Origin: Parcubacteria group bacterium
GTDB lineage: Bacteria; Patescibacteriota; Minisyncoccia; Phycocordibacterales; DATDWN01
Assembly (NCBI GenBank): GCA_035438705.1
Contig: DAORIV010000003.1
Location: forward strand, 4,699-68,698
Direction: 5' to 3'
Length of the DNA: 64,000 nt
Positions 2,663 through 59,824 of the stretch are shown piece by piece. Positions within the stretch are counted from its first letter, which is position 1. Each line of letters begins with the position of its first letter. Made by a program: the position numbers and the translations under genes. The notes beneath the pieces were generated by a model that worked only from the letters and a program-made list of their open reading frames with translations, made no database searches and was not told the origin of the DNA.

Positions 2663-3145
2663 CTAAGGTAGCGGGACGTATGAGATTGACCCATTACCAG
2701 ATACTAGAACTGGTGACCTGTTGGAAACCAGCACATTGTATATGAGACCAGAAACCCTTTCTGGGAACACGATTCTGGTGCCACCAGTCTTTGTCAGAGA
2801 GATGGTGGTTGGTTCCACAGAGGTGAGAGACATCTCGCCACCACTCTGTGTCTGTGTGAAGAGGCCGATATAGATTCGACGCTCTTCTGAATCAGTCAGG
2901 TTTACCTGCACATCCAGGACTGTGCCTTGACGAACATCCATCGGGACCGTTTTGTAAACCCCACCGAATGGGGTGTTGGGAACAAAAGGGTTCAGGGTGA
3001 AGTTGTTGATACTGATTGTCACCGGCTGAGAAACAGTCGGTGTGGAATTTGTGGGAGAAGTTGGACTCTGCAATCCACTCCCACCACATGCAGTACACAG
3101 ATTCGCCAGAAAGGCGACGAGGGCAACGAAAACGAGCTTGCGCAC
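2663..3145 (-). CDS. Putative lipoprotein in a GC-rich cassette. The likely start is GTG at 3145; the ORF track extends it to an ATG at 3175.
   Basis: The ORF is about 50% GC against roughly 33% in the flanks. A strong SD (AAAGGAGG) lies 7 nt upstream of the GTG. The N-terminus (M)RKLVFVALVAFLANLCTACGG looks like a signal peptide followed by Cys. Confidence 0.5.
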   Translation of the reverse strand: MRKLVFVALVAFLANLCTACGGSGLQSPTSPTNSTPTVSQPVTISINNFTLNPFVPNTPFGGVYKTVPMDVRQGTVLDVQVNLTDSEERRIYIGLFTQTQSGGEMSLTSVEPTTISLTKTGGTRIVFPERVSGLIYNVLVSNRSPVLVSGNGSISYVPLP

Positions 3146-3246
3146 GACACTGCCTCCTTTCGCCCCTTTGGGCATAAGTCTTCAGGGAACTTCTATCTAT
3201 ATTTAAACCCCAATATACCAAAAAGTCAAACTGCTATCCACAATAA

Positions 3247-7436: not shown

Positions 7437-8009
7437 CTACTGTGAGTAGCCGACTTCGAAGGAGTGATGTGCCCACAGGACACCCTCACCAGTAGAGGAT
7501 GTTCTCATCTCGACCAGGATGTACTTAAATGGGGGTACCATCATGAACATCCTTCCATCACCGAAGAAATAATCCTTGTCTGGAATGTCGATATAACCAT
7601 TCCCGAACTCAGGACCACTCTTTGACGTGCCATCACTTGATGGATAAATCGAGTAGTTCACACTATTCCCAGTGCGAAGATTGAGATTGTCCATCCGAAT
7701 ACGAATCATCGGAGAAAAACGGACGGTCCCATTCTGAACGACACCAGCTGAAGGACTGAGACTCACGAGCTCCACCACAGCGATGAAATCACGTGACGGA
7801 TCGTGATCCATCTTGGGACGAATCGCTCCAGTTGGAACAGTGAGAGCACCAGAAGGTGGCGGGGTGTTCGAGATGCAGCTGGGCGAGGTCATGAGAACAC
7901 CCTCGCAGTATTGCTTAGAGGTGGAATCGAGACCACCCTCAGCACAACCGATCGTGGTTGTGATACCCGCAAGGGCAAGAGCGACGAAAGCCGAACGAAA
8001 CGACGACAT
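7437..8009 (-). CDS. Putative lipoprotein in a GC-rich cassette
   Basis: A 190-aa ORF at about 50% GC. A strong SD (AAAGGGAGG) lies 5 nt upstream of the ATG. The signal peptide MSSFRSAFVALALAGITTTIGC carries a lipobox-like TIGC. Confidence 0.55.
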   Translation of the reverse strand: MSSFRSAFVALALAGITTTIGCAEGGLDSTSKQYCEGVLMTSPSCISNTPPPSGALTVPTGAIRPKMDHDPSRDFIAVVELVSLSPSAGVVQNGTVRFSPMIRIRMDNLNLRTGNSVNYSIYPSSDGTSKSGPEFGNGYIDIPDKDYFFGDGRMFMMVPPFKYILVEMRTSSTGEGVLWAHHSFEVGYSQ

Positions 8010-13526: not shown

Positions 13527-13833
13527 AGTGATTGTTAAATTTCCTAATAGAAATCGGCTAATTAGTACACCTCGGCTACACATATTGCTATGCTTCCACC
13601 TAGTGCCTATCACGTGATCATCTCTCACGGGCCTCAAACGATTCCTAATCTTGAAGTTGGTTTCACTCTTAGATGCTTTCAGAGTTTATCCATTCCCGAC
13701 TTAGCTACTCTGCGGTGCCCTTGGCAGGACAGCAGACACACCAGAGGTCAGTTCACCCCGGTCCTCTCGTACTAGGGGCAAATCTTCTCAAGAATCAACG
13801 CCCACAGTAGATAGGAGACCAACCTGTCTCACG

Positions 13834-14409
13834 CATGTTTCCACAAATTACTTTGTGCATTGGACTATAACTTCATGTACCGAAAGGCACACTGTTGATG
13901 TTTAGTCTCTACGGGCGTTTATGAATTTCATCAAGAATGCGATACAAAATCGCAAATGTTTTGTTGCCACCCAAAAAAGGGTGGCGACCCTAACTGGATT
14001 CGAACCAGTGTCCTCGCTTTTCTTTTGGATGAGCAAGTGTCCTAGGCCTCTGGACGATAGGGTCCTAACAAAACGAAAGAACGACATTTCTCACTTGAGA
14101 AATGGCGGTAGTGAAAATGAGATCCCTGTACTAGCGGTCCTCGCTCTTCGAGCCAACGGCGTGCCAGTCTGGTCTATCTTCACTACCTCAACAATTCTTG
14201 ATGAAATTCACAAACTTCCCTCGGTATTATCCAAAACAAAAAATTAAATTGTTTGGACTCCACCGATATAAATCAACTTTAATCGCACGAATGCGACCGC
14301 CGTGATTTGATTGGTTCCTTATCTTTATTCATAAACGAAAATTCCTCTGAGGATTCAGATTGTGGAGAAATCCAGATTTTTTAGCAAGCTAAAAAGAAAT
14401 GAAATTCTC
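13834..14409 (-). other. Putative ORF-less self-splicing intron (group I-like), ~576 nt, inserted in 23S at the I-CreI/I-CeuI-type site (E. coli ~2593)
   Basis: The exon sequence CTGTCTCACG | ... | ACGGTCTGAACCCAGCTCGCGTAAG is contiguous in all uninterrupted 23S rRNAs (GGGTTTAGAACGTCGTGAGACAG). The insert has no sense-strand ORF longer than 61 aa. Confidence 0.6.
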
Positions 14410-15042
14410 CACGGTCTGAACCCAGCTCGCGTAAGATTTTAAATGGCGAACAGCCATACCCTTGGGAGCTTCTTCACCCCCAGGATATCTTGAGCCGACA
14501 TCGAGGTGCCGAACTGTGCCGTCGCTATGGACGCTTAGGCACAACCAGCCTGTTATCCCCAGGGTAGCTTTTATCCGATAATCTCCGGCCGCCTCTAAAA
14601 CGGACCGTCGGTTCACTATGTTCCACTTTCGTGTCTGTTTGACAAGTACGTCTTACAGTTAAGCCAGCTTATGCCATTACACTATCGGTATGGTTTCCAT
14701 TCACACCTAGCTGACCTTAATAAACTCCTCCGTTACTCTTTAGGAGGATAGCGCCCCACTAAAACTGCCCACCAGAAACTGTCTCTGTCCGTTTTTTCCG
14801 TACAGGTTAGAAAGTATATCAAACAAGATGGCTATTTCACTGACGACTCCAGGCTACCCGAAAGTGCCCTTCAAAGTCTCACCACTATGCTACGCATGCA
14901 AAACATACCCTCAATATCAAGTTGCAGTAAAGCTCCTGGGGTCTTTTCGTCTAACTGCGGGTAACCGGCATCTTCACCGGTATTGTATTTTCACCGAGCA
15001 AATCCCCGAGACAGTTCTCCAGTCATTATACCATTCGTGCAC

Positions 15043-15390
<348 letters not shown>

Positions 15391-16802
15391 CAGGGCTTAT
15401 ATAATCAACCTAAAATCTTGCGACTCTCGGCTACCATATTTGACCTTCTGGCATTGGTCAGGCATCACCCCCTATACATCCTCTTACGAGTTCGCAGGGA
15501 GCTGTGTTTTTGATAAACAGTTGCCAGAGATACTTTAGCTGCGGCCCACCGAAGTGGGCAAGCCTTATTCCGAAGTTACGGCTGCTTTTTTGCCGAGTTC
15601 CTTGGGGATCTCTCACTCGTTCGCCTTGGTCTACTCGACCTGACTACCTGTGTCGGTTTACGGTACGGATCTTATGTGATTAAGCTTAGAAATTTTTCTT
15701 GAAAGCGTGCTTTGTATAATCCCCTAGACTTACGCCCGGGTTTAAATACTGCTTGGTATTATCATTTAAGAAAGTGTGCGGATTTACCTACACAGCTACC
15801 TCACAGTACATACTCAAATCCAATAATGAGCTATACATACTACCCTCCGTCCTTCCATCGCATCACACAAAAGTGCAGGAATATTAACCTGCTGTCCATC
15901 GGCTGCGACTCTCGTCATTGCCTTAGGCCCGACTAACCCTGCTCTGATTGACATTGAACAGGAAACCTCAGTCTTTCGGCGCTGGGGGTTCTCGCCCCAG
16001 TTGTGGTTACTTGTGCCAACATTCTTACTTCGCAACGCTCCAGCGTGGGTCACCCCTTCGCCTTCACAGCAGATACGAATACTCTCCTACCGCTTGTCTT
16101 TTCCGAAGAAAAAACAAACCCTCAGTTTCGGTACATAACTTAGCCCCGATTATTTGCGGCGCGGAATCTCTTACTGAGTGAGCTGTTACGCTATCTTTCA
16201 AGGGTGGCTGCTTCTAAGCCTACCTCCTCAGTGTCTACGAAATTCCACCACCTTAAGCGCACTTAGTTATGATTTAGGGACCTTAAATAGAGATCTAGGC
16301 TGTTTCCTTTTTGACGTACGGAGCTTAGCCCCCGCCGTCTAACTGCCGTATAGTTAATCTTCCGTATTCGGAGTTTGATAGGTCTCACGAGATTGCTCCC
16401 TGTTGAGACCTTCCAGTGCTCTACCCCGGAAGGGTAAATACGACGCTAGCCCAAAAGCTATTTCGGAGAGAACCAGCTATTACCAGGCTCGATTAGCTTT
16501 TCACTTCTTACCACAAGTCATCCCAATGTATTGCACGGCAAACGGGTTCGGGCCTCCATCTATCTTTCGATAAACTTCACCCTGCTCATGGCAAGCTCGC
16601 TCTGGCTTCGGGTCTAATGCACACGATATATTCGCGCTATTCACACTCGGTTTCCCTGAGACTCCATCCGACAAAGGACTTAGTCAAACCGCGTACATTA
16701 ACTCGTTGGCTCATTCTTCAATAGGCACGCCGTGACGGATATAAATACCCGCTCCGACTCCTTGTAAGCATATGGTTTCAGATCTATTTCACTCCCCTTA
16801 TA

Positions 16803-16845
<43 letters not shown>

Positions 16846-17430
16846 ATCTTTAAATGTATTTAGCCTTACCGGTTAGTACCGGCAGATTCCTCCGAGCTAT
16901 TCATGTCTCGAAGTACTCAAGAACAGAAACAAAGAAGATATTATTTTTTCGCTCACGGGACCATTACCCTCTAGGGTTGTGCTTTCCAGCACATTAAACT
17001 AAAATAATATTTTTTAACTTCTCTCACAATAAATTGTGACGTCTCTGCCTTACAACCCCACCCCGCCATCCTCATTTCCAATTTCTCAGAAACAAAGATA
17101 GAAGGGTGGTTTGGGCTTTTGCGTTTTCGCTCGCCGCTATTTACGCAATAACAATTGTTCTCTTTTCCTCCAGGTACTGAAATGTTTTACTTCCCTGGGT
17201 GCACGATCTAGATAAACTCTAGACCAACGACATGTAGTCGTTAGGTTTCCCCATTCAGAAATTTTCGGATTAACGGTTGCTAGGCACCTCCCCGAAACTT
17301 ATCGCAGCCATGCTACGTCTTTCATCGCCATTTAAAGTCAAGGCATCCACCATACGCTCTTAAATTTCCCATTAGGAAATTTAAAAACCACAAGTTACAA
17401 AAAACGACCACTCGCTTTTTATAACAATTA

Positions 17431-19532: not shown

Positions 19533-19934
19533 CTATTTCAAAGTTACTTTCGCTCCTGCCTCCTCAAGAGATTTCTTTAGTTTCTCTGCGTCTTCTTTCT
19601 TCATTCCTTCCTTTAGCATTGCTGGAGCACCATCAACTAGATCCTTAGCTTCCTTTAGACCAAGTCCTAGAGCTTCTTTAACAACCTTAATAACTGCAAT
19701 TTTTTGTGCACCTCCATCTGTTAGTTCAACAGATTTTGTAGATGATTCATCTGCACCACCCGCTGCTGCACCTCCTGCTGGAGCTGCTACAGCTACAGCT
19801 GCTGCTGATACTCCGAATTTCTCTTCTAAGTGTTTTACTAGCTCATGTAGATCTAGTACTGACATTTTTTCTATTGCTTCTACTACAGCTTTGAATTTTG
19901 CTGGAGTTTCAACTATTTTGTTTTCTGTTTCCAT
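19533..19934 (-). CDS. rplL: 50S ribosomal protein L7/L12
   Basis: It has an Ala/Gly-rich hinge and the conserved C-terminal domain [33 protein letters not shown]. Confidence 0.95.
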
Positions 19935-19989: not shown

Positions 19990-20487
19990 TTATGCTTGTG
20001 TCTCCTTCTTTTTTGCCACCTCACTTAGTGCCATAACGAAACCTTGTATTGGTGAATTGATAAGATTAACAAATTGAGCTTGTAGAGTTTTAAGACTTGG
20101 AATTTGTGAGATAACCAACATCTCTTCCTTTGTCATAAATTTATTTTCAAAAACTCCACCAACTATTTGTATCTTCTTTTCAAGTTTCTTTTGAAACTCG
20201 TAAACCCCTCTAGCTCCTTCAATAGGATCAGTACCATAAACTATACCGAGCTCACCTGGTAATTCTGGCATTTGACCTTCAAATCCAGCTTCACTAAGAG
20301 CTTTCTTAGTTAGTGTTTTCTTTGCAATGGTATATCCAACCCCTTTTTCTCTCAAAGCCTTTCTTATTATTGAAGACTCTGATACTGGAAGAGCATGAAA
20401 GTTTATAAAAACAATCGAAGAAGAGTCCTTAACTATTTTCTGTAGTTTAGATAGGATCTCCCCCTTTTTTTCTCTTGTTAAAGCCAT
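19990..20487 (-). CDS. rplJ: 50S ribosomal protein L10
   Basis: A 165-aa ORF immediately upstream of rplL with typical L10 sequence (ALTREKKGEILSKL..). Confidence 0.95.
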   Translation of the reverse strand: MALTREKKGEILSKLQKIVKDSSSIVFINFHALPVSESSIIRKALREKGVGYTIAKKTLTKKALSEAGFEGQMPELPGELGIVYGTDPIEGARGVYEFQKKLEKKIQIVGGVFENKFMTKEEMLVISQIPSLKTLQAQFVNLINSPIQGFVMALSEVAKKKETQA

Positions 20488-21103: not shown

Positions 21104-21262
21104 TTATTTATTATTGTTAATCACACTTGCTGTCTGACTACTATTTATATTCTGTTGTGCTTCATATAGTCGTGCAGCCAACAAAATAATTATGCTCGTA
21201 CATATTATAGCAATAAAGCCAAGTAAAAACTTAAAGAAATCTCTGTCGAAGTATTTCAACAT
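21104..21262 (-). CDS. Small single-TM protein (52 aa), translationally coupled to the TPR gene
   Basis: Hand translation gives MLKYFDRDFFKFLLGFIAIICTSIIILLAARLYEAQQNINSSQTASVINNNK. Its ATG overlaps the TAA of the upstream gene (TAATG) and it ends 4 nt before the next ATG. It is below the ORF-track size cut-off. Confidence 0.35.
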   Translation of the reverse strand: MLKYFDRDFFKFLLGFIAIICTSIIILLAARLYEAQQNINSSQTASVINNNK

Positions 21263-21954
21263 TAGTTTAAGTTTTTCTTAAAGTCTGATAATGCCGGATC
21301 GTTAGGTATAACTTTCAAGCCTTGCTCAATTATCGCTTTTGCTTTAGAAATATCCCCAAATACATCTCTATACGCCTCAGCAAGTTGAATGTAAAGATAT
21401 GTTTGTTTTGGATCTTTTGATATAGCCTCTTTGTAATACATTTCGGCCATGGCATTATCCTTCAAATGATATGCATACAAGAAACCTAAGTTACCACGAG
21501 ATATAAAATCTGTTGGAGCTTTTTCACTTACATATTTCCAAGATATTTTCGCCCCCTCATAGTCACCTGCCATTTTTTGGTACATACCAAGATCTATCCA
21601 AGGCAAAAGTTTATTTGGATCAGCTTTTATTTGTGTTTGAAGTCCAACTATTTTTGAAGTAATCATTGTTTTTACTTCTGGAGTAAAAACTAGCTTACTA
21701 TCAAAAACTACTGCCCTGTTTAAATCTGGTACAGGAATTTTTTTAACATTTTCAGTTATTGGAACTTGTTCTATGGTGTAATTCGGATTATTTTTACTTA
21801 ATTCATCTATTATTACTTGTTCAGTTGTGCTTGCGTTTGTATTTTCAGTTTCAGTTTTATTTGTTTTTTTATTCATAACCATATACACACCCAATATAAG
21901 TATTACAATAAAAACTATTAACGAAATCACTTTTTGTGTTTTTGTCATTTCCAT
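21262..21954 (-). CDS. Membrane-anchored TPR-repeat protein
   Basis: It has an N-terminal TM helix and a C-terminal TPR-like run of repeats (AEMYYKEAISKDPKQTYLYIQLAEAYRDVFGDISKAKAIIEQGLKVIPNDPA). Confidence 0.65.
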   Translation of the reverse strand: MEMTKTQKVISLIVFIVILILGVYMVMNKKTNKTETENTNASTTEQVIIDELSKNNPNYTIEQVPITENVKKIPVPDLNRAVVFDSKLVFTPEVKTMITSKIVGLQTQIKADPNKLLPWIDLGMYQKMAGDYEGAKISWKYVSEKAPTDFISRGNLGFLYAYHLKDNAMAEMYYKEAISKDPKQTYLYIQLAEAYRDVFGDISKAKAIIEQGLKVIPNDPALSDFKKNLN

Positions 21955-34638: not shown

Positions 34639-34712
34639 GCGCCTGTAGCTCAGTTGGTTAGAGCACAGAGCTTATACCTCTGGGGTCCCTGGTTCGAGTC
34701 CAGGCAGGCGCA
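34639..34712 (+). tRNA. tRNA-Ile with anticodon UAU (reads AUA)
   Basis: The sequence GCGCCTG-TA-GCTC-AGTTGGTTA-GAGC-A-CAGAG-CTTATAC-CTCTG-GGGTC-CCTGG-TTCGAGT-CCAGG-CAGGCGC-A folds into a full cloverleaf with a perfect 7-bp acceptor stem. The backbone closely resembles bacterial tRNA-Ile. CCA is not encoded. Confidence 0.75.
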
Positions 34713-34720
34713 CACGATTC

Positions 34721-49921: not shown

Positions 49922-52900
49922 TTATCTCAGAATAGAGAAAGTGGTCTCTCCACCAATATCTGGAACGTTATACTTCTGTTTTTCTTCTGTATAAGAAATA
50001 TCATTAACTCCAGTTGGAGATTTAATCATTTCCAGGTGTTTATATATAATTCCCTGCTTGTCTGTACAAAAAACAATGTTTACTACATCACTAGGATTTA
50101 ATTTTTCTGTTTTCCTTGCATCTTGAATAGCTCGAATAATATCTCTAGCAACACCTTCTTCTATAAGTTCTGGGGTTAAGTTGGTATCAAGTTTCACCTC
50201 ATCACCAACCACTACCTCTTTTACATTAACCTCATCAGCTATGATACTTAGTAACTCCTCTGAAAAACTTTCCTTTATTATAAGTGTGTTTAATGGCTGT
50301 CTTACCTTGTGGCCAGACTTTTGTCTAAGCTCCAAAGCCAAAGTAACATTCTCTCTAACCTTACTCATACTATCTATCAAAGAAGAATCAGTATCTCCGC
50401 CATTTGGCCAGAAGTCTAAATGCACACTTTCTTTTGATTCTGGATTCTTCATTTTTTGGTACACTTCTTCCGCAAAGAAAGGTGTAAATGGTGCCATATA
50501 TTTTGAAAGTTCGATTAGTACAAAGGCTGTTGTTGCCAGTGCTTCATTTCTTTCTTCAGCATTCTCAGATTTAAATCTATCTCTTGAGCGTCTTACATAC
50601 CAAGTAGAAAAATCGTTTACAAAATCCCTTATTGGCCTAGCAGATTCAAAAACTTGAAACTTCTCTAATGTTTTTGTTCCACCCTCAACCAACTCGTTTA
50701 GTCGTGACAAAATCCATTTATCCAAAACATTTTGACTTTTGTTATGTGGTAGTGTTTTGTCATCTTTGTACAACTCATAGAATGCAACAATGTTTAGAAG
50801 TGGGTTGAAAACTTTTTTAACTATTTCATCGACAGTTTTCTCATCAAAGTTTTTTGAATCCCCTGGCTGGTTAACCATATACATCCAAAGTCGTAGTGCA
50901 TCTACTCCGTATTTATTCATAAGCTCCCAAGGATCAAGAATGTTTCCAACAGACTTAGACATTTTCTTTCCGTCTTTATCTAGAATATGCCCAAGACAAA
51001 TTACATTCTTAAATGCCCTACCCTTACCCATAAGTATTCCTATTGCATGTAATGTATAGAACCATCCACGAGTCTGATCTATTGCTTCAGAAATAAAGTC
51101 TGCTGGGTATGCAAGCTCATTTTTATTCCAAGGGAAATGATCTTGTGCAAAAGGCATCGAGCCAGAGTCAAACCAAACGTCCATAACTTCCCTAACCCTT
51201 TTAAGTGAGCTTCCTTTTTCATCAACAAGCTCAACACCATCTATATATGGCTTATGCAGATCAACTTCATATTCTGAATTGTGTGGTAGTGGAATAAAAG
51301 AAATTTCGTGAACTTCTGCATTTCTTATAAACTCTTCTTTATCCTTTCCAAATAATGACGTTTCTACTCTGTTGTATCCTCTACTTGCAGATTCCAAAGC
51401 CCAAGCTGTGTGTTCGTGGGTCACAAAAAGTATCACTTCATTTGTATTTGTTTTATCTACATCATACAAAAGGTTTCCTGTTCTATTTTTAACATCAGAC
51501 AAATTTTCACCCTGCTCAGGCCTAATATCAAAAATATCCTCATCAGTTTTTATTAACTTATGATACTCATCTACCGACTGTCCTGACATAACCCCCAAGT
51601 CATGTTCTCCAAGTCTATCATCGAAAGTGAGTTTATCCTCTGTTAGCCCAAGTACTTCTCTTATTATTTCTGCAGTTTCTGTAGTGCGCACAAAAGGAGA
51701 AGAGATTATTTTTGTAATACCTTTTTCTTTCAAAACTTTTGCCGACTCTTCTACTTGTTTCCTGCCTTTTTCAGTAAGGTGAAAATTGTCTTCTTTTTTA
51801 CAACTCAAAATATTTGCAACATTATGTTCACCTTCACCGTGTCGAACTAGGAAATATTTATTTCCATTAGTTTTTATATATTTCTTTAAATCATCCAAAC
51901 CTCCTATTACTTTTATATTTCCTTCAGAATCTTGCCAAACTGGGAGTGGAGTTCCCCAATATCTCTCCCGAGAAATAGCCCAATCTTTTATTTCTCGAAG
52001 CCACTCTCCAAAACGTCCTTCTTTTATGTGTGAAGGTTCCCAGACTATGTTTTCATTCTCTTTCACAAGTTCTTCACGAAGTTTTGACATAGCGATATAC
52101 CATGAATCCCTTGCATAATAGATAAGTGGAGTTTTACATCTCCAGCAGTGTGGATATGAGTGCTCGTATTTTTCTTTCTTAAATAGCAATCCTCTGTGAG
52201 CCAAATCTTTTATTATATCTACTGCGACTTCTTCATCTTTAACAAATCTGTTAGACAAAAAATCCATACCATCTAGAAAATTCCCATCATCTTTAACTAA
52301 GTGAAACTTAGGGAGACCGATTTGTGTTCCCAAAATAAAATCATCTTGTCCGTACATTACTGCTGTATGAACAATTCCTGTTCCATCGGTTGTGGTTACA
52401 AAATCTGCAGAGTAAACCTTATACGCTTTTGCAAACGATTCTTTGTCTTTCTCCTCAAACTTCTGCACGAGGAATGGATACAGTGGTTCATACTCCATTC
52501 CAACCATTTCACTACCCTTATGTTCGGCAATAATCTCATATTCACCCTGTATCACTGAAAGTCTTTCTTTTGCTAAAACTAAAATCTCGCTGCCATTTTC
52601 TGTAGCGATTTTTACTTCTACATATACCACATCCTTTCCAACAGCAAGACCTACATTTCCTGGAAGTGTCCAAGGTGTAGTTGTCCACGCAAGAAAATAT
52701 CCATTTTCAGTTCCTCTTATTTTAAACTTTGCAGTTACAGAAAGATCTTTATCATCTTGATAACCTTGTGCTAGTTCATGTGATGACAATGCTGTTCCAC
52801 AACGTGGACACCAAGGTAGGACTTTGTAGTCTTTATATAACAACCCTCTATCATTTACAGTTTTTACAATATTCCAAACAGACTCTATATAGCTTGTATC

Positions 52901-53350
52901 GAAAGTATAATATGCATCTTTTTTATCAACCCAGTAACCTATTCTATCTGTAAATTTTTCCCAGTCGCCAATGTATTCAAACACACTGTCTTTACACTGC
53001 TTATTAAACTCTTCTACTCCATATTGTTCTATTTCTTTTTTAGATTTAAGACCAAGTTTTTTCTCAATCTGGAGCTCAACAGGAAGTCCATGTGTATCCC
53101 AACCTGCCTTTCTTCTCACGTTAAAACCTTGCATCGTTTTGAAACGAGGAATGATGTCTTTAAAAACCCTAGACTCTAAGTGGTGTAGAGCTGGTTTAGC
53201 ATTTGCAGTTGGAGGACCTTCATAGAAAACAAACTTACCTTTTGGAGCATCTTTTTCCAATGTTTTTTTAAACACTTCTTTTTCTTGCCAGAATTTTAAA
53301 ACTTCTTCTTCTTTGAGTGCTGTTTGTGATTTTTGTGTTTCTGGATTCAT
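49922..53350 (-). CDS. ileS: Isoleucyl-tRNA synthetase carrying an inserted histidine-phosphatase (phosphoglycerate-mutase-like) domain
   Basis: The IleRS core is recognisable: a HIGH-region, the CP1 editing domain (WTTTPWTLP), WGTPLPVW, DVWFDSGS and KMSKS. Between WGTPLPVW and DVWFDSGS lie ~240 extra residues with all four histidine-phosphatase motifs: LVRHGEGEHN, SSPFVRTTETA, DDRLGEHDLG and FVTHEHT. The total length is 1142 aa. Confidence 0.85.
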   Translation of the reverse strand: MNPETQKSQTALKEEEVLKFWQEKEVFKKTLEKDAPKGKFVFYEGPPTANAKPALHHLESRVFKDIIPRFKTMQGFNVRRKAGWDTHGLPVELQIEKKLGLKSKKEIEQYGVEEFNKQCKDSVFEYIGDWEKFTDRIGYWVDKKDAYYTFDTSYIESVWNIVKTVNDRGLLYKDYKVLPWCPRCGTALSSHELAQGYQDDKDLSVTAKFKIRGTENGYFLAWTTTPWTLPGNVGLAVGKDVVYVEVKIATENGSEILVLAKERLSVIQGEYEIIAEHKGSEMVGMEYEPLYPFLVQKFEEKDKESFAKAYKVYSADFVTTTDGTGIVHTAVMYGQDDFILGTQIGLPKFHLVKDDGNFLDGMDFLSNRFVKDEEVAVDIIKDLAHRGLLFKKEKYEHSYPHCWRCKTPLIYYARDSWYIAMSKLREELVKENENIVWEPSHIKEGRFGEWLREIKDWAISRERYWGTPLPVWQDSEGNIKVIGGLDDLKKYIKTNGNKYFLVRHGEGEHNVANILSCKKEDNFHLTEKGRKQVEESAKVLKEKGITKIISSPFVRTTETAEIIREVLGLTEDKLTFDDRLGEHDLGVMSGQSVDEYHKLIKTDEDIFDIRPEQGENLSDVKNRTGNLLYDVDKTNTNEVILFVTHEHTAWALESASRGYNRVETSLFGKDKEEFIRNAEVHEISFIPLPHNSEYEVDLHKPYIDGVELVDEKGSSLKRVREVMDVWFDSGSMPFAQDHFPWNKNELAYPADFISEAIDQTRGWFYTLHAIGILMGKGRAFKNVICLGHILDKDGKKMSKSVGNILDPWELMNKYGVDALRLWMYMVNQPGDSKNFDEKTVDEIVKKVFNPLLNIVAFYELYKDDKTLPHNKSQNVLDKWILSRLNELVEGGTKTLEKFQVFESARPIRDFVNDFSTWYVRRSRDRFKSENAEERNEALATTAFVLIELSKYMAPFTPFFAEEVYQKMKNPESKESVHLDFWPNGGDTDSSLIDSMSKVRENVTLALELRQKSGHKVRQPLNTLIIKESFSEELLSIIADEVNVKEVVVGDEVKLDTNLTPELIEEGVARDIIRAIQDARKTEKLNPSDVVNIVFCTDKQGIIYKHLEMIKSPTGVNDISYTEEKQKYNVPDIGGETTFSILR

Positions 53351-53599: not shown

Positions 53600-55276
53600 T
53601 TACATTTTTTCTGGAACTTTGATGCCAAGTAAATGTAGCCCCCCTATCATCCAATGCAAGAAAGTCCTTGTAATTGCCAAACGATATGGTGAAGTAACAT
53701 CATTTTCATCTATTATTTTTCCACTTGCATAGAAACTATTAAACTCTGCTGCAAGTTCTGTGAGGTAAGTGGTTATATAATGAGGAGCAAACTCTTTTCC
53801 AGATCTCTCTACCACATCAAAAAACCTATCCAACATTCTTTCTAGATTAGTAGTTTGCCAACCTTCTGGCTTATCTCCAGAAATCTCTACAATATCTTCA
53901 GCCTTTTTTAATATTGAATTCGCTCTAACAGCTGAATACTGAAGATATGGACCCGAATCACCATCAAATGAAATAGACTTATCAAAATCAAAAATAATAT
54001 CACCTCCTATTGCCTGTCGCAGTATAGTGTATTTTATAGCCCCAAGCCCTATTGTTTCAGCGATTACACCCCTTTCACTTTCTGGAATATCACCGTCTTT
54101 CATTTTTTCTAAAACTTTTTCAGTAACTTGATTAATCAAAGCAGTGGCTGTAATAACATTTCCTGTTCTTGAAGACATCTTTCCTTCTGGAAGCTTGAGC
54201 ATGCCATGAGAAATATGTTTTGTTTTTATAGCGAGTTCTGGGAAAACTAGCGACATAGCTTTAAGAAGAACTTTGAAATACTCATTTATCTCATTGCCAG
54301 TAATCACTATTGAAGTGTCATATTGATATGTATCGTATTTCAGTTTTGCCAAGCCAAGTTCTTTTGCTTCATATGTAGGCAAACCTTCTTTGTTTACAAA
54401 AACTCTAGTATGAAGTTTCTTGTCGTGATTTTCCCCTTTGAAAACAACAGCCCCGTCACTTTCTTCAAAAACTTCACCTACATTTTTCAAAACAGTCTCC
54501 TTTCCAAAATCTGCTACTTCACTTTCGAAAAAGTAGTGATCAAACTTAGTACCCAGAATTTTATACATTACTTCAAAATAAAGAAGTGATTTCTGTCTAC
54601 CAGTTTCATACAACTCATTTATTTCTTCATCCGAATGGTCGTATATCTTTTTATTTATTTCTATAATTTCTATTTTTGCCTCCTCATCTTCCTCGTATGC
54701 TTTATGTCCCTCAGCATATGCCTGCATCAAGTCTGTACCTTTTTTCATAGCCCAAACAGCTTTGGCGACATGAAGACCAACATCTCCTTGATAGTTTGCC
54801 CTTTGTATTTCAGCACCATTTTTCTCAAGTATTCGTGAAATAGATTCACCAATAACATTTGGCATAAGGTGTCCAATATGAAACTCCTTGAATGGATTAG
54901 GATCTGTATACTCTATAATTATTTTTTGACCAGAAAATATTAAATTTTCAGTTTTTCCATTTTTAAGTTCTTGCAATCTTTTTGCATAATAGTCTGGTGT
55001 TAAAAAGAAATTTAAAAACCCTGGTTTAGCCACTTCAATTTTTAAAATATTCTCCAGTTCTTTTGCTCTTATTTTGTCCTTACTTTCTAATTCTTTTTTG
55101 ATTTCTTCTGCTAAATCAACTGGATTTTTCCCTAATTCTTTTGCATGAACCATAGCAACTGAAGTAGTATAATCCCCTTTATCCAAATACACCGAAGAAA
55201 CAACGGACACATTCAAATCCTTTGCTCCAAGATCAATTAATATTTTTTCTATTTCTTTTTGTAATATTTCTTTCAT
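53600..55276 (-). CDS. argS: Arginyl-tRNA synthetase
   Basis: A class I HIGH-type motif (EFHIGHLM) and the characteristic ArgRS C-terminal DALR-like anticodon-binding domain. Confidence 0.85.
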   Translation of the reverse strand: MKEILQKEIEKILIDLGAKDLNVSVVSSVYLDKGDYTTSVAMVHAKELGKNPVDLAEEIKKELESKDKIRAKELENILKIEVAKPGFLNFFLTPDYYAKRLQELKNGKTENLIFSGQKIIIEYTDPNPFKEFHIGHLMPNVIGESISRILEKNGAEIQRANYQGDVGLHVAKAVWAMKKGTDLMQAYAEGHKAYEEDEEAKIEIIEINKKIYDHSDEEINELYETGRQKSLLYFEVMYKILGTKFDHYFFESEVADFGKETVLKNVGEVFEESDGAVVFKGENHDKKLHTRVFVNKEGLPTYEAKELGLAKLKYDTYQYDTSIVITGNEINEYFKVLLKAMSLVFPELAIKTKHISHGMLKLPEGKMSSRTGNVITATALINQVTEKVLEKMKDGDIPESERGVIAETIGLGAIKYTILRQAIGGDIIFDFDKSISFDGDSGPYLQYSAVRANSILKKAEDIVEISGDKPEGWQTTNLERMLDRFFDVVERSGKEFAPHYITTYLTELAAEFNSFYASGKIIDENDVTSPYRLAITRTFLHWMIGGLHLLGIKVPEKM

Positions 55277-55608
55277 TATCTATTGTCTCCAATACCCTTA
55301 ATAACTCCTCTTTTGTTTCTAGATGCTAATTTTTCAATATTTGCCTTAGCTATATCATCAAAATTATAACCTAAATCTTTTGCTAAAACTGATAAATACC
55401 ACAATACATCACCTAGTTCAAACTTCAAAGCTTCCTTCCTCTCTTTTGTCATCTTTTCAGTTCCATCATCACCCCTAAGCCATTTCTTAATTTTACCTAT
55501 AACTTCCCCAGTCTCATCAGCCAATCCTAATGCAGGATAAACCACCTTATATTGTTTTGGATATTTTGCTGTTTTTAAAGCATTTTTCTGATATTCATTG
55601 AATTGCAT
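55276..55608 (-). CDS. MazG-like nucleoside triphosphate pyrophosphohydrolase
   Basis: YQKNALKTA...GLADETGEV...ELGDVLWYL matches the all-alpha NTP-PPase (MazG) motifs. The likely start is the internal Met MQFNEYQ. Confidence 0.65.
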   Translation of the reverse strand: MQFNEYQKNALKTAKYPKQYKVVYPALGLADETGEVIGKIKKWLRGDDGTEKMTKERKEALKFELGDVLWYLSVLAKDLGYNFDDIAKANIEKLASRNKRGVIKGIGDNR

Positions 55609-55681
55609 ATGCAAATAATAACATTGACCTCTTTGTTTATAAAGCGAAGCGCGGTGGTAATCATACCACCGCGCAAAAGAG

Positions 55682-56284
55682 TTAGTTATCAAGAGCATGG
55701 CCAAGTGCCACCAATGCTACTGAAATCATTCTCTCTTCAGGAACATCGGCATCAACCTGAATAGAAACAATTCCTTCTCTCGAAAAGAACTTATCGTAGA
55801 AAACACGAGTCATTCGTCTGTCTTCTTCACTTCTACGATCAAAATGGTTTTCACCTCCACGTGCTTTTAATCTACGAGTTGCTTCTGCTGGTGAAACCTT
55901 GAAATCAAGATAGATACAAGGAACACCTCTAAGACAGACTTCTCTTGTGTGCCAGAAAAGTTCCTCGAGGTCTGGGTTTTTCCCGATTTGATATGCATAA
56001 GTTGAAGCATCAAATCTATCTGAGATAACTACTTGACCCGCAGTAATTGCTGGTCGAATAATTTTCGCTACATTCTCTGCGCGAGAGGCCCAGAAAAGAT
56101 TGAACATAGTCAGAGGATCTGCTTGTTCTGCATCGTCTGACAAAACCAGCTCTCTAACTTTCTGACTCAACCCCAAACCACCAGGTTCACGAGAAAAAAT
56201 AAAGTCAGGTCTTGCTGACTTAAGATGGTTTATGAAGGTAGTTTTACCACAACCATCCAATCCTTCAAGGAATACTGCTTTCAT
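55682..56284 (-). CDS. tmk: Thymidylate kinase
   Basis: It has the P-loop LEGLDGCGKTT, a DR motif and a lid region. GC is about 43%, clearly above host level. A strong SD (GGAGG) precedes it. Confidence 0.85.
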   Translation of the reverse strand: MKAVFLEGLDGCGKTTFINHLKSARPDFIFSREPGGLGLSQKVRELVLSDDAEQADPLTMFNLFWASRAENVAKIIRPAITAGQVVISDRFDASTYAYQIGKNPDLEELFWHTREVCLRGVPCIYLDFKVSPAEATRRLKARGGENHFDRRSEEDRRMTRVFYDKFFSREGIVSIQVDADVPEERMISVALVALGHALDN

Positions 56285-56413
56285 ACGAAACCTCCAGTAA
56301 AAAGAATATCACTTAGTAAATAAATTGTAAGATTGACCTACACCTAGATAAAAGGTAGAAATATACCAGAACTTTGTGTGGATTCCTCCACCAAAAACAA
56401 GGAGCTCTTTTAC

Positions 56414-57235
56414 ATGAGTAATGTAGACATTAAGATTTTCAACATCGCAAGAACTGAAGTTGATCGAGAAGAAGTTCGAAGGTGGCTCGACCATGTTGGA
56501 GCAAATGGATACGAAATCCCAGATGAAGCAACTGCTTCGAGTCCAGCCCTCCTCATCGCTCTGGCAGCCAAGCGCTGCTATATGAGCTTTGAGCCTGGTC
56601 TCAATCCCAATGTGACAAAAGTCCGAAGGGATATGGTCGCGTACTTCGACAACATCCTGTTGTCGCGACATGGATCAGTCCTCGAACACGCAGTTTACTC
56701 GTTTGCAATCGAAGGGATCAGCCGAGTTTTCACTGCTGAGATGAACCGCCATCGAGCTGGCTGGGCAATCTCGGAAGGAAGTCTCCGCTACATTCGTTTC
56801 GACAAGGATATCCCTTGGTGGTTGCCGACATCACTGCAACCCAATGAAAAAGACGACCCGGATCTCGCTCTGAGAAAAGCGAGGTCGGTTGAAATCTTCC
56901 GTCGTGCATTTGGTCACCAGGAAGAATGTTACGCTGAACTCTTGCAAGTCTGGGACATGGATGCCAGTCACCACAACTTCCACTACAAAAAAGTTGTGAC
57001 TTCATGCCTGCGAAGAATTGTGGGGCTTGGTGTTGCAACAGGAGGTGTTTGGACTGGAAACATGCGTGCACTCAGACACGTCATTGCCATGCGTGCAACT
57101 GAAGCAGCAGAAGAAGAGATCTTCTATGTGTTCGACCAGATCGCAAGGATGATGGTTGCAAAAGAACCTCTCATCTTTAACGACTTCAAGACCGACGAAA
57201 ACGGTTTCTGGACTCCCGAACACTGGAAGGTGTAA
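56414..57235 (+). CDS. thyX: FAD-dependent thymidylate synthase ThyX
   Basis: It carries the ThyX signature RHRAGWAISEGSLRY (RHR..S..S.RY). GC is about 50%. An SD (AAGGAG) lies upstream of the ATG at 56414; the ORF track starts 36 nt earlier. Confidence 0.75.
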   Translation: MSNVDIKIFNIARTEVDREEVRRWLDHVGANGYEIPDEATASSPALLIALAAKRCYMSFEPGLNPNVTKVRRDMVAYFDNILLSRHGSVLEHAVYSFAIEGISRVFTAEMNRHRAGWAISEGSLRYIRFDKDIPWWLPTSLQPNEKDDPDLALRKARSVEIFRRAFGHQEECYAELLQVWDMDASHHNFHYKKVVTSCLRRIVGLGVATGGVWTGNMRALRHVIAMRATEAAEEEIFYVFDQIARMMVAKEPLIFNDFKTDENGFWTPEHWKV

Positions 57236-57239
57236 CAAG

Positions 57240-57284
57240 AAAAACCCGCGTGCAGTCATTGACTGCTCGCGGGTTCGTTTTTTA
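57240..57284. terminator. GC-rich bidirectional terminator shared by the convergent thyX and dcd genes
   Basis: AAAAACCCGCGTGCAGTCATTGACTGCTCGCGGGTTCGTTTTTTATT: a long near-perfect hairpin with an A-tract before it and a T-tract after it. Confidence 0.5.
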
Positions 57285-58385
57285 TTCCCATTCCTTGAAT
57301 TGTTTACCGAGTTTTGGACCATTCTGACGTCCATACGTCGGAGACTTTTCATCGTAATGAGCATCCGGAACACCAAAGACTTTTTCATAGCGAACTTTTG
57401 CTATGGGCTGTCCATCTTGAATGATGATTCCGTTATCGAAAGAACGAACTTCCAAAGTCAGGGTGCGACCAAAAGTGCTAACCTGTTGAGTTACTCCCCA
57501 ACCCGGATCGATGAATCCTGCATAATGAGAACGCAAGTCCCCACTACGCTCGTCCATCGGCACCATCTCACAAGTGAGATGTGGTGGAACTACCACATGT
57601 TCCTTTGTTGAAAGGATGTAGAAAGTACCAGTATTAAGTGTGAGTGACCTGTTGAAAACAGTGATGGGCCTGAAGTAATACTTCGGATCATAGTGACTCC
57701 GAAGAGAAAGATCAATCGGATCCCCTCCCTCAATCGCTTCAAAACCAGGATTTTGAAATCCAAGTCCAAGCGAAAGAAGAATTGATCCGTCTCTATCTGA
57801 ATGTCTTTGATCTTCGTATTTGGCTTGTTCTCCGTCACAATCAAAGATCAAACCATTGAAGTTCATTCGCAAATCCCATTCATCAAAACGGGTATCTGCT
57901 GTGAAAAACCTGATTTGATTCAAAGACAAACCCGGAGAAACAATCACTGGAAAAGTCTTAGGAACCACAAGAATCCAGAGGTTTCCAGAGTACGCCTGCT
58001 CTACTGCATCGTAACGAGAACAGCTATCCACAAGCAAACGCACATGCATATCGACCCGACCACTTGAAGACTTCGGATTACAATATGCATACACACCTTC
58101 AGGCAACTTTGAAACGGCCTCATTTAGTGGCAGAACATAACAGCAACCTCTTTCAAGGAGAATCTTTTCTCCTGTTAGTTTGGTACTCCCAACACGTCTC
58201 AATGCACTGAAAACTGATTCACCAATTGCAGGAAGAAAAGCTCCCCGTACACGAAACACTTCACCTGTTACGGTGAGATCCAAGGAGCTAGGCCGAACAC
58301 TGTCGATGTTTGTTACACCACTCAAGAATCCACTATTAATCAGATACTGAATCTTGTGATCAGGTAATGCTCCACCTTGTCTCAT
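57282..58385 (-). CDS. dcd: dCTP deaminase-like protein, long (~360 aa) form of the Dcd/dUTPase beta-clamshell family
   Basis: Its N-terminus aligns with E. coli Dcd (HKIQYLINSGFLSGVTNIDSVRPSSLDLTV versus RDIEAWLDEGRLSINP..VDVRL) and it has the FIDPGWG motif. GC is about 45-50%. Confidence 0.6.
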   Translation of the reverse strand: MRQGGALPDHKIQYLINSGFLSGVTNIDSVRPSSLDLTVTGEVFRVRGAFLPAIGESVFSALRRVGSTKLTGEKILLERGCCYVLPLNEAVSKLPEGVYAYCNPKSSSGRVDMHVRLLVDSCSRYDAVEQAYSGNLWILVVPKTFPVIVSPGLSLNQIRFFTADTRFDEWDLRMNFNGLIFDCDGEQAKYEDQRHSDRDGSILLSLGLGFQNPGFEAIEGGDPIDLSLRSHYDPKYYFRPITVFNRSLTLNTGTFYILSTKEHVVVPPHLTCEMVPMDERSGDLRSHYAGFIDPGWGVTQQVSTFGRTLTLEVRSFDNGIIIQDGQPIAKVRYEKVFGVPDAHYDEKSPTYGRQNGPKLGKQFKEWE

Positions 58386-58435
58386 GAACCCTCCTAAAAG
58401 TTTCTCGTGCTACTCTAACATAAGCATTATCAATA

Positions 58436-58470
58436 AAAAAGACCATCAAATGATGGTCTTTTTTTATTAT
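58436..58470 (-). terminator. Rho-independent terminator after rplK
   Basis: AAAAAAGACCATCAAATGATGGTCTTTTTTTATT. Confidence 0.5.
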
Positions 58471-58492: not shown

Positions 58493-58915
58493 TTATTTCA
58501 CATCCACGCCCATACTTCTAGCTGAACCTGCGATAATCTTCATCGCTGCCTCAACATCGTTAGCGTTAAGATCTGCCATTTTCTTTTCTGCGATTTCTTG
58601 AAGTTGAGCTTTTGAAAGAGTTCCTACTTTTGAAACTGCATTTTTACCTGATCCTTTTTCTTTTCCGATAGCTTTTAGAATAAGAGCTGATGCTGGAGAA
58701 GTTTTAAGTACGAAAGTGAAAGTTCTATCTTCATAAACAGACACTTCTACAGGCACAGTTTCACCGATCATTTTCTGTGTAGCATCGTTGAATTGCTTTA
58801 CAAATTCACCAATATTAACACCCGCCTGTCCAAGTGCTGGTCCCAAAGGTGGAGCTGGTGTAGCTTTACCTCCTATCGCCAAAAGCTTTAGTTTTTTTGT
58901 TACTTTTTTTGCCAT
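58493..58915 (-). CDS. rplK: 50S ribosomal protein L11
   Basis: The conserved N-terminal domain reads [28 protein letters not shown]. Confidence 0.95.
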
Positions 58916-59085
58916 AATTTTAGTTCAAATACATTACTATAAATACCCTATTTTTGCAAACTTCATAAAGTTTCAAATTCAGATGAAATCCGAGGCAGAC
59001 AAGGAATTTTATTGGAGCCGTACAAATAGTACGGTGACAATCAAATTGCCGAAGTCCAACAAAGGAGTTAGCTGAATTTGAGACT

Positions 59086-59631
59086 TTATATCTTTTTTAC
59101 TTGTAAGAAATCTAGTTCAACCGGTGTCTCTCTTCCAAACATAGCAACTAGTACCTTCACCTTACCTCTCTCCTCATCAACCTCGTTTACTTTTCCATCC
59201 AAATCCTTAAATGGTCCGTCTACAATAGAAACAGTGTCATTAATAGACAAATCTATCTTATGTTTAACATTTCCTGAATCCATTCTCTTAAACAAATCAT
59301 CTATCTCTTTTTTATCAATTGGAACTGGGTAAACACCAGAACCTACGAATCCAGTAACTCTAGGAGTGTTTCTTACTACGAACCATGAATCTTCTGTAAC
59401 AATCATGTCTACCAATATGTAACCAGGGTAAATTTTTTCTTCCTCCTCAACCCTCTTTCCACCTTTAATTTTTATCTTTTTTTCAGTAGGAACGATAACA
59501 TTAAAAATCTTATCTTCCATTCCTAAAGATTCAATACGCTGTTTTAGATTTCTCATCACAGCATTTTCATATCCTGCATATGTGTGAACCACATACCAGT
59601 TTCTTGTGTTATCTAATTGTTGTTTTGCCAT
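59086..59631 (-). CDS. nusG: Transcription antitermination factor NusG
   Basis: It has an NGN domain (WYVVHTYAGYENAV) and a KOW domain (VDGPFKDLDGKVNEVD). Confidence 0.95.
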   Translation of the reverse strand: MAKQQLDNTRNWYVVHTYAGYENAVMRNLKQRIESLGMEDKIFNVIVPTEKKIKIKGGKRVEEEEKIYPGYILVDMIVTEDSWFVVRNTPRVTGFVGSGVYPVPIDKKEIDDLFKRMDSGNVKHKIDLSINDTVSIVDGPFKDLDGKVNEVDEERGKVKVLVAMFGRETPVELDFLQVKKI

Positions 59632-59644
59632 ATGATTTTGAGTA

Positions 59645-59824
59645 TTAGATTACAAATTTCTCAATTACCATTTTAAATAGATAATCAAAAAAACCAAGAA
59701 GAAATGATACAAAAACAGATATTAGAACCACAACAATTGTAAAAGCTATAGTTTGATTTCTTGTGGGCCAAGAAACGTGTTTAAGCTCTCCTTGTGTATC
59801 TTTAAAGTATGTTATTAATGACAT
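59645..59824 (-). CDS. secE: Preprotein translocase subunit SecE (59 aa)
   Basis: Hand translation gives MSLITYFKDTQGELKHVSWPTRNQTIAFTIVVVLISVFVSFLLGFFDYLFKMVIEKFVI, with a single TM helix. It sits 13 nt upstream of nusG, the canonical secE-nusG-rplK order. Confidence 0.7.
   Translation of the reverse strand: MSLITYFKDTQGELKHVSWPTRNQTIAFTIVVVLISVFVSFLLGFFDYLFKMVIEKFVI

Follow-up and report, generated by a model that had tools for sequence, protein, structure and literature searches.

The 64,000-nt stretch analysed here, termed the window, comes from contig DAORIV010000003.1 of a Parcubacteria group bacterium (assembly GCA_035438705.1), and it harbors a compact block of three genes predicted to serve thymidylate synthesis, located between the ribosomal protein gene rplK and the tRNA synthetase gene argS. 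The block comprises tmk (55682-56284, minus strand) for a dTMP kinase designated as type A, thyX (56414-57235, plus strand) for a flavin-dependent thymidylate synthase of a 273-aa class, and a long-form dcd (57282-58385, minus strand) for a dCTP deaminase of 367 aa. Each gene is preceded by a strong Shine-Dalgarno (SD) site, namely GGAGG, AAGGAG, and AGGAGG, respectively, just as the initial annotation of this DNA had noted. The upstream anchor of the slot is formed by rplK, nusG, and secE (58493-59824, minus strand; assigned by Pfam), and the downstream anchor is argS (53600-55276, minus strand; Pfam tRNA-synt_1d and DALR_1), which adjoins the module in all syntenic loci. Between tmk and argS lies a mazG-like gene (55276-55608, minus strand), which encodes an all-alpha nucleoside triphosphate (NTP) pyrophosphohydrolase of 110 aa.

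The identities first assigned to tmk, thyX, and the long-form dcd were borne out by matches in Pfam, NCBIfam, and the PDB. Tmk matched PF02223 (E 2e-27) and cleared the TIGR00041 equivalog cutoff (104.6 bits versus 83.25), and ThyX matched PF02511 (E 1.8e-33) as well as the ThyX structures of M. tuberculosis, exceeding the curated cutoffs of both PF02511 (116.4 bits versus 24.8) and TIGR02170 (108.6 bits versus 87.9). The longest open reading frame (ORF) of thyX opens at a GTG at 56378, which is the start implied by the initially annotated region; the true start is almost certainly the ATG at 56414, because it yields the 273 aa found in the homologues and is preceded by the AAGGAG site 9 nt upstream. 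The ThyX signature motif RHR...S..S.RY is present as NRHRAGWAISEGSLRY, the spacing of which exceeds that of the canonical motif by one residue. Among 30 homologues, H113, S120, S123, and R125, and also R112, are invariant, and R114 is conserved in at least 90%, and FAD/NADPH-dependent methylation of dUMP by this ThyX is predicted. The long Dcd is constructed of a DCD_N domain (PF06559, E 6.8e-43) and a DCD_C domain (PF22569, E 1.5e-35) and matches the Agrobacterium structure PDB 2r9q over its full length (E 1.4e-51). It scored under the NF005734 equivalog cutoff (265.1 bits versus 283) and is regarded as a divergent family member that presumably has the same function. The MazG-like protein matched PF03819 (E 8.7e-11; 42.4 bits versus a cutoff of 22) and phrog_229, a family of MazG-like pyrophosphatases (E 5.7e-35). 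A phmmer search of the PDB with this protein gave no match, and a profile search of the same database returned remote matches to MazG, YpjD, and DCTPP1 only.

The block had attracted attention by its guanine-cytosine (GC) content, and this part of the earlier description was reproduced. Against a background of 44 other genes (GC about 0.34; mean GC at third codon positions, GC3, 0.234, sd 0.038; window GC 36%), the GC of tmk, thyX, and dcd amounts to 0.415, 0.488, and 0.438, respectively, and a 200-nt profile displays a GC plateau at 55.65-58.4 kb with a dip to native GC at the tmk/thyX intergenic region. The linkers are native in GC, with the dcd and thyX ORFs standing above them, and the adjoining mazG-like gene is likewise of native, low GC, in line with what had been reported. 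The further statement that third codon positions are GC-rich holds for thyX, the most deviant gene of the block (GC3 0.50, z=7.1; codon-usage z=-5.7), and for dcd (GC3 0.36, z=3.2; codon-usage z=-3.4), but not for tmk, whose GC3 of 0.28 (z=1.2) is near-native and whose surplus GC resides in codon positions 1 and 2.

Evidence on the age of this arrangement came from related genomes. The gene order MTase-PAP2-SIMPL-secE-nusG-rplK-(dTMP module)-argS-ileS-recO-CLIPPER-proS recurs in the loci L003, L005, L008, L011, L014, L017, L073, L076, L082, and L125-L135 and in the contig of P0002. In 15 or more of the related Parcubacteria loci, the interval from rplK to argS contains a dcd-thyX-tmk module, it is present in every syntenic relative, and every relative examined carries a thymidylate module; its position is therefore ancestral to a whole clade and does not stem from a recent insertion. 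The identities of the homologues are graded, descending from 83, 81, and 79% onward for ThyX, from 96, 85, 82, and 76% onward for Dcd, and from 74 and 62% onward for Tmk. All named nearest homologues of the three proteins belong to Parcubacteria, Paceibacterota, or Minisyncoccota, with the lineage names taken from the protein-source labels.

It had initially been proposed that the block splits a ribosomal gene cluster. The block does sit directly after rplK, and rplJ (19990-20487, minus strand; Pfam Ribosomal_L10) and rplL (19533-19934, minus strand; Pfam Ribosomal_L12) are indeed distant from rplK, near the 23S/5S rRNA genes (23S rRNA at 13541-17376, minus strand, by rRNA model match). The order rplK-module-argS is ancestral, however, and rplA was detected neither in the window nor at the relatives' loci: tblastn with E. 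coli L1 matched nothing in these 64 kb or at any of the loci retrieved for the search, while L11, the positive control of this search, matched every syntenic locus. A 230-aa ORF upstream of rplJ (21262-21954) was considered as rplA and rejected, as it matches TPR families. The OD1-L1 Parcubacteria are named for lacking ribosomal protein L1, to judge from the way Brown et al. 2015 is cited in PMC5220378. The lack of an rplA match at this locus and at those of the relatives fits such a group, and the gap after rplK is probably a lineage trait rather than the scar of an insertion.

These findings bear directly on the original proposal of a recently gained dTTP-making module in a host that otherwise probably salvages nucleotides, modelled here as an island of dcd, thyX, and tmk that came en bloc from a distant high-GC bacterium or phage. 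GC and GC3 are raised over a contiguous 2.7 kb, and phages carry ThyX of the same class, both of which speak for such an event. Opposed to it are the recurrence of the module at this position in 15 or more relatives, the Parcubacteria affiliation of the nearest homologues of all three proteins, the native codon usage of tmk, and the differing histories of the three genes described below. Moreover, no viral homologue of the long Dcd was found and viral Tmk reached at most 43% identity, the ORFs inspected in 52-62 kb included no integrase or transposase, the nearest tRNA gene is more than 20 kb from the block, and rplA was not found in any relative's locus. An island of this kind is accordingly very improbable, and recent acquisition of a complete module is not supported, with dcd roughly tracking its flanks and the synonymous sites of tmk being native. 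The idea of a high-GC bacterial donor fared no better, as the initial annotation itself had held that nearest homologues from the same lineage would speak against import, and the nearest named homologues are Parcubacteria and Paceibacterota.

The abrupt changes of GC at 55.65 and 58.4 kb could also be taken as a sign that assembly or binning introduced a fragment of higher GC into a contig of low GC. The same gene order is nevertheless present in a contig of an NCBI metagenome-assembled genome (CAYNPG010000001.1 of GCA_964399045.1; 175 kb), in which thyX and tmk are identical and dcd is 99% identical, and it was assembled independently in a Logan contig. In addition, the Tmk protein is present on 27 contigs, and the linkers inside the block are native in GC and common to the relatives. 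The probability of a chimera is accordingly close to negligible.

Although the position of the module is constant, its contents are not. Dcd in the slot is either long (about 367 aa) or short (about 232 aa), and ThyX is of 273, about 347, or 438-469 aa, all of which match Thy1 and are mutually very distant. Tmk occurs as types A and B, which are 15-19% identical, and three inner-clade relatives carry the second class. The module further includes a dUTPase, a MazG-like protein, or neither, and sometimes SHMT. The mazG position is held by mazG in L129 and L135 and by dut in L134, L126, L127, L130, and L076.

The two closest relatives of the window, L134 and L135, illustrate this turnover. Compared with L134, the window is 96% identical in each of rplK, the long dcd, and the 273-aa thyX, 74% in tmk, and 80% in argS, with the mazG position being held by dut in L134. 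Compared with L135, the identities are 95% for rplK, 74% for tmk, 86% for mazG, and 88% for argS, and L135 has a short dcd and a 438-aa thyX at the positions of the other two genes. The window is thus itself a mosaic, in which dcd and thyX are closest to L134 and argS and mazG are closer to L135. L134 and L135 share rplK at 100% amino acid identity and tmk at 96.5% nucleotide identity. Their nucleotide alignment consists of conserved stretches (rplK with its terminator, 93%; the thyX 5' untranslated region (UTR) with tmk, 96%; argS, 84%) alternating with the non-homologous pairs of long and short dcd, 273-aa and 438-aa thyX, and dut and mazG. In this pair, the one in which the breakpoints were mapped, one boundary of homology coincides with the start codon of thyX, and others fall a few bases away from the stop codons of dcd and thyX.

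In gene displacement in situ, a gene of a conserved operon or neighborhood gives way to a xenologous or non-orthologous counterpart. At the present slot, close relatives fill one position with genes that share a function but are non-orthologous or very distant, and gene replacement has taken place within it.

The non-coding linkers between the exchanged genes are the constant element of the slot. Directly downstream of tmk lies a GC-rich, terminator-like hairpin (55649-55674, minus strand) with an 11-bp stem containing 8 GC pairs (-22.9 kcal/mol, z -6.1). The divergent tmk/thyX linker (56285-56413, no strand assigned; GC 0.34, native) contains both SD sites and the thyX 5'UTR AAGGAGCTCTTTTAC, which is common to the 273-aa thyX of the window and L134 and to the 438-aa thyX of unrelated length in L135. 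The convergent thyX and dcd genes share a bidirectional intrinsic terminator (57243-57275, no strand assigned; -26/-25 kcal/mol, z -5.8/-6.3), the GC-rich hairpin that the earlier reading had recognized. An AT-flanked hairpin terminator with a 13-bp stem (58435-58464, no strand assigned; -16.5 kcal/mol, z -5.8) separates rplK from dcd. A promoter consensus scan yielded sites no more frequent than those in shuffled sequence.

The thyX/dcd hairpin forms a conserved part of this scaffold in the relatives. Its core, GCAGTC-N3-4-GACTGC, has a single copy in the window, and L125, L127, L130, L134, and L135 carry it at the corresponding position, so that it marks the thyX 3' end in six independent lineages, whichever thyX class adjoins. 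Compensatory changes affect 8 of the 12 hairpin pairs (7 lineages), and a 47-nt hairpin stretch is 100% identical between L134 and L135 even though their dcd and thyX genes are non-homologous. Being single in the window and confined to this locus in the relatives, the hairpin is not a dispersed repeat. An assignment as an integron or repetitive extragenic palindromic (REP)-like element was rejected, the core occurring only at this locus in the relatives and no integrase being present.

The three genes were found to differ in history, and lateral transfer is evident for thyX and characterizes the slot as a whole. Neighbor-joining trees of the flanking genes nusG, rplK, secE, SIMPL, and argS (200 bootstraps) united the window with L134 and L135 in 199 of 200 replicates, recovered a nine-member inner clade in 198 and a pair of L005 and L011 in 179, and never joined the window group to L005 (0/200). 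In the tree of the 273-aa ThyX class, by contrast, the window, L134, L005, L004, P0002, and P0005 form one clade in 100/100 bootstraps, and L003, L011, L014, and P0065 form a separate clade, also in 100/100; the rest of the inner clade carries the 347-aa or the 438-469-aa class. Because the ThyX grouping obtains 100/100 against 0/200 for the flanking genes, the thyX of the window and L134 is, on this phylogenetic evidence, laterally related to that of an L005-like, higher-GC Parcubacteria lineage, and parsimony over the inner clade suggests import from that lineage. L005 has a GC of about 52% and a thyX GC3 of 0.77 (versus 0.50 in the window), and the composition of the window gene fits a partly ameliorated import. 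Outside L134, the closest ThyX is that of the P0002 contig, at 83%, with the flank-identity and GC measurements being confined to the loci other than this contig.

No such incongruence was evident for the long dcd, and the initially postulated horizontal acquisition is supported for thyX. The long dcd is 77, 72, 70, 69, and 63% identical to those of L125, L126, L127, L129, and L130, respectively; since these values roughly follow the flanks, the long dcd is probably an older resident of the locus. Type A tmk is patchy over the clade and has a near-native synonymous composition here.

The 273-aa ThyX class also occurs on many IMG/VR phage contigs, with up to 69-71% identity to the window protein, which exceeds that of some syntenic Parcubacteria ThyX (53-63%). 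These contigs share nothing further with the window. They encode a PolA-UDG fusion, a PIF1-like helicase, an integrase, RNR, and a processivity factor, and also an intein-bearing dUTPase, UvsX, SbcC, and QueC/TGT, and the GC of their thyX equals that of its own flanks. On one such contig (L109, 10844-14395), the UDG-PolA fusion protein adjoins the 273-aa thyX, and in L085 (15634-16875) a phage dUTPase is split by a LAGLIDADG-type intein. Among the viral scans of Dcd, Tmk, and the ThyX classes, close phage relatives were found for the 273-aa ThyX only: the long Dcd had no match, Tmk reached at most 43%, the 347-aa ThyX 33%, and the class of about 450 aa 39-45%. Among the cultured phages of INPHARED, the best ThyX match was 41% (Streptomyces jumbo phages), and the long Dcd again had no match. 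The lack of a viral long Dcd and the distance of viral Tmk therefore leave phages as plausible vectors for thyX only, namely for its 273-aa class.

A stronger proposal is that phages were the direct donors of thyX, and perhaps of the mazG-like gene, in the course of Parcubacteria infections. It can draw on the high identity of phage ThyX relative to some syntenic genes, on the phrog_229 match of the MazG-like protein, and on the bootstraps, in which monophyly of the cellular, all-Parcubacteria ThyX273 was recovered in 0/100. The closest ThyX proteins (79-83%) are nonetheless cellular and syntenic, namely those of L005 and the P0002 contig, the deep nodes between phage and cellular ThyX are weak and unsupported, and the best cultured phage match stands at 41%. 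Direct donation by phages is, on balance, quite unlikely.

High GC in dcd, thyX, and tmk extends to nearly every low-GC relative. Of 27 gene-by-locus comparisons over nine inner-clade loci, 26 gave these genes a GC3 above the median of the flanks, whatever the enzyme class. The dut, mazG, and SHMT genes of the slot have a native composition, as does the dut that very recently replaced mazG in L134, and the GC3 of the long dcd tracks that of its host with an offset. The fourfold-site GC of thyX is 0.38-0.41 in the window and L134, as compared with 0.11-0.20 in native genes, and the fourfold-site identity between these two thyX genes is 0.55, values in keeping with a partly ameliorated import of this gene. 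The adjoining ribosomal protein genes show no elevation of GC3, which makes general translational selection an unlikely cause. The GC richness of dcd, thyX, and tmk may be due to synonymous selection specific to these genes, to GC-biased gene conversion, or to import that recurred from a mid-GC pool.

Such data could be read to mean that all three genes descended vertically, with their GC kept by synonymous-site selection or GC-biased gene conversion, and that composition is uninformative on origin. The 26 of 27 comparisons, the long dcd, which roughly follows its flanks in identity and its host in GC3, and the absence of GC richness from the recently swapped dut and mazG are all in favor of this reading. 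It is contradicted by the thyX tree, which is strongly incongruent with the flanks, and by the non-homologous enzyme classes in the same slot of near-identical relatives, which cannot be vertical; the ribosomal protein genes next door, moreover, lack a GC3 rise. Strictly vertical descent is therefore regarded as unlikely.

The interpretation we favor, and hold to be probably correct, is that the block represents the ancestral rplK-argS thymidylate module of an L1-less Parcubacterium, whose genes were displaced in situ and whose thyX was imported. The established bacterial route leads from dCTP to dUTP by Dcd, on to dUMP by a pyrophosphatase, then to dTMP by ThyX, and finally to dTDP by Tmk. 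In the present organism, the long Dcd would make dUTP from dCTP, the MazG-like pyrophosphatase would most likely convert dUTP to dUMP, ThyX would methylate dUMP to dTMP, and Tmk would phosphorylate dTMP to dTDP. The 64 kb of the window yielded no dut, and the MazG-like protein is the best candidate for the dUTPase step because its gene lies at the position that dut occupies in L134, L126, L127, L130, and L076. Each gene would constitute a small transcription unit of its own, set off from the next by conserved non-coding linkers, that is, the rplK terminator, the covarying bidirectional hairpin, and the thyX 5'UTR together with the tmk promoter region. The genes are shown to have been replaced singly by functional analogues or distant homologues of other lineages, presumably through homologous recombination across the linkers. 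The common ancestor of the window and L134 would have acquired the 273-aa thyX from a Parcubacteria lineage of higher GC, and the gene would have been ameliorated only in part.

Several points weigh against this interpretation. The trees are neighbor-joining trees on short alignments, with deep ThyX nodes unsupported (30% or less), and the direction of thyX transfer depends on parsimony over about nine inner-clade loci. The long dcd is roughly vertical and yet GC3-enriched in every relative, which simple un-ameliorated import does not explain. The dut and mazG genes were swapped as readily but have native GC, and foreign origin is therefore not always accompanied by high GC. The assignment of dUTP as the substrate of the MazG-like protein derives from gene position, and the statements on rplA, dut, thyA, and salvage genes cover 64 kb of the genome.

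A bolder variant can be offered tentatively, in which the rplK-argS interval acts as a "hot-swap" slot whose linkers, namely the covarying bidirectional hairpin and the constant thyX 5'UTR, serve as homology arms through which lineages and their phages exchange whole ORFs for analogous enzymes of the dTMP pathway. The GC of dcd, thyX, and tmk, though not that of dut and mazG, would then be actively maintained, for instance by GC-biased gene conversion or synonymous selection, instead of being a leftover of import.

In comparison with known systems, the slot is an unusually fine-grained example of a known process, which combines in-situ displacement with the mobility of thymidylate synthases. 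As in gene displacement in situ, the neighborhood and the position of each step are kept while the encoding genes are unrelated or very distant among close relatives. The slot differs from the usual cases in that several adjacent steps were displaced independently and in that the breakpoints, in the one mapped pair, coincide with the ORF ends or lie only a few bases from them, inside linkers, among relatives whose L11 is 95-100% identical. Widespread lateral gene transfer of thymidylate synthases, with a role for viruses, has been described (Stern et al. 2010, PMC2826268), and horizontal transfer of thymidylate synthase into Patescibacteria has also been reported (PMC12455944). In common with the ThyA/ThyX transfers of PMC2826268, the ThyX phylogeny disagrees with the organism tree and phages carry close homologues; unlike those cases, the exchange here takes place among ThyX classes, within one class of Patescibacteria and at a fixed locus, and no ThyA was seen.

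The enzymatic steps are those of the bacterial dcd-dut/thyX-tmk route for de novo dTTP synthesis, with Dcd resembling 2r9q and ThyX resembling that of M. tuberculosis, but a MazG-like protein takes the place of the expected dUTPase and the genes form a cluster next to rplK. No rplA follows rplK, and no L1 match was obtained in the window or related loci, as would be expected of the OD1-L1 Parcubacteria. Deviant composition, a hairpin after each gene, and cassette-like exchange are reminiscent of a genomic island or integron cassette array, from which the module is distinguished by having no integrase, no attC-type repeat family, and no tRNA boundary, by a hairpin unique to the locus, by genes in both orientations with an SD site each, and by its presence in all relatives. 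Flanking direct repeats were not noted at the block, although no search was aimed at them.

Several further features of the window and the related loci deserve mention. Two ORFs (2663-3175 and 7437-8009, both minus strand) have a GC of 51% and a GC3 z of about 7.8 and are as deviant as thyX; their N-termini resemble lipoprotein signal peptides, and each is located downstream of a giant surface-protein gene, the two such genes being paralogous. Their inclusion in the feature was rejected, as they show no mutual similarity and no Pfam or PHROG match. A 300-nt repeat of 100% identity (1-300 and 3947-4246) and further repeats of 66-91% identity spaced about 3.9 kb apart indicate tandem paralogous genes for large surface proteins, and the identical copy could be an assembly issue. 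Between argS and ileS, L130 carries an IMP-cyclohydrolase-like gene (15513-16247; GC3 0.60 versus 0.40 in the flanks) and L127 a 225-aa ORF (about 15643-16320; GC3 0.61), which suggests that further GC-rich accessory genes enter the same neighborhood in relatives. One relative (L132/L133, 7139-7507) has a gene of the 23S_rRNA_IVP family between nusG and rplK.

The window IleS (49922-53350, minus strand; 1142 aa) holds an inserted histidine-phosphatase domain (PF00300, His_Phos_1) with an RHGE motif in the translation, and the same architecture was found by Pfam matches in every relative with a full-length IleS listed. The IleS proteins of L126 and L132 are 46-52% identical to the other inner-clade IleS proteins, which are 66-76% identical among themselves, unlike the nusG and rplK products of L126 and L132 (84-94%), and they are possibly another case of a displaced gene beside the slot. 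A tRNA-Ile gene with the anticodon UAU is present at 34639-34713 (plus strand), which is an uncommon bacterial way of reading AUA. The 23S rRNA gene spans 3836 nt, as against 2925 nt in the model, and thus contains about 0.9 kb of insertions, and a tRNA-like match (13985-14064, with an odd 4-base anticodon call) and a 108-aa ORF (13921-14247) lie inside it.

The genomes of the candidate phyla radiation (CPR), or Patescibacteria, are minimal, and these bacteria presumably obtain nucleotides from partners. The clade described here keeps an apparently complete route from dCTP to dTDP at a fixed locus while exchanging the enzymes of that route, and the locus thus offers a compact natural example of essential functions being maintained through gene displacement. 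A GC-rich patch in a low-GC genome can accordingly indicate not a recent island but an old slot that is common to relatives and has been overwritten repeatedly. Meanwhile, the similarity between phage and Parcubacteria ThyX provides a lead for linking uncultured phages to CPR hosts.

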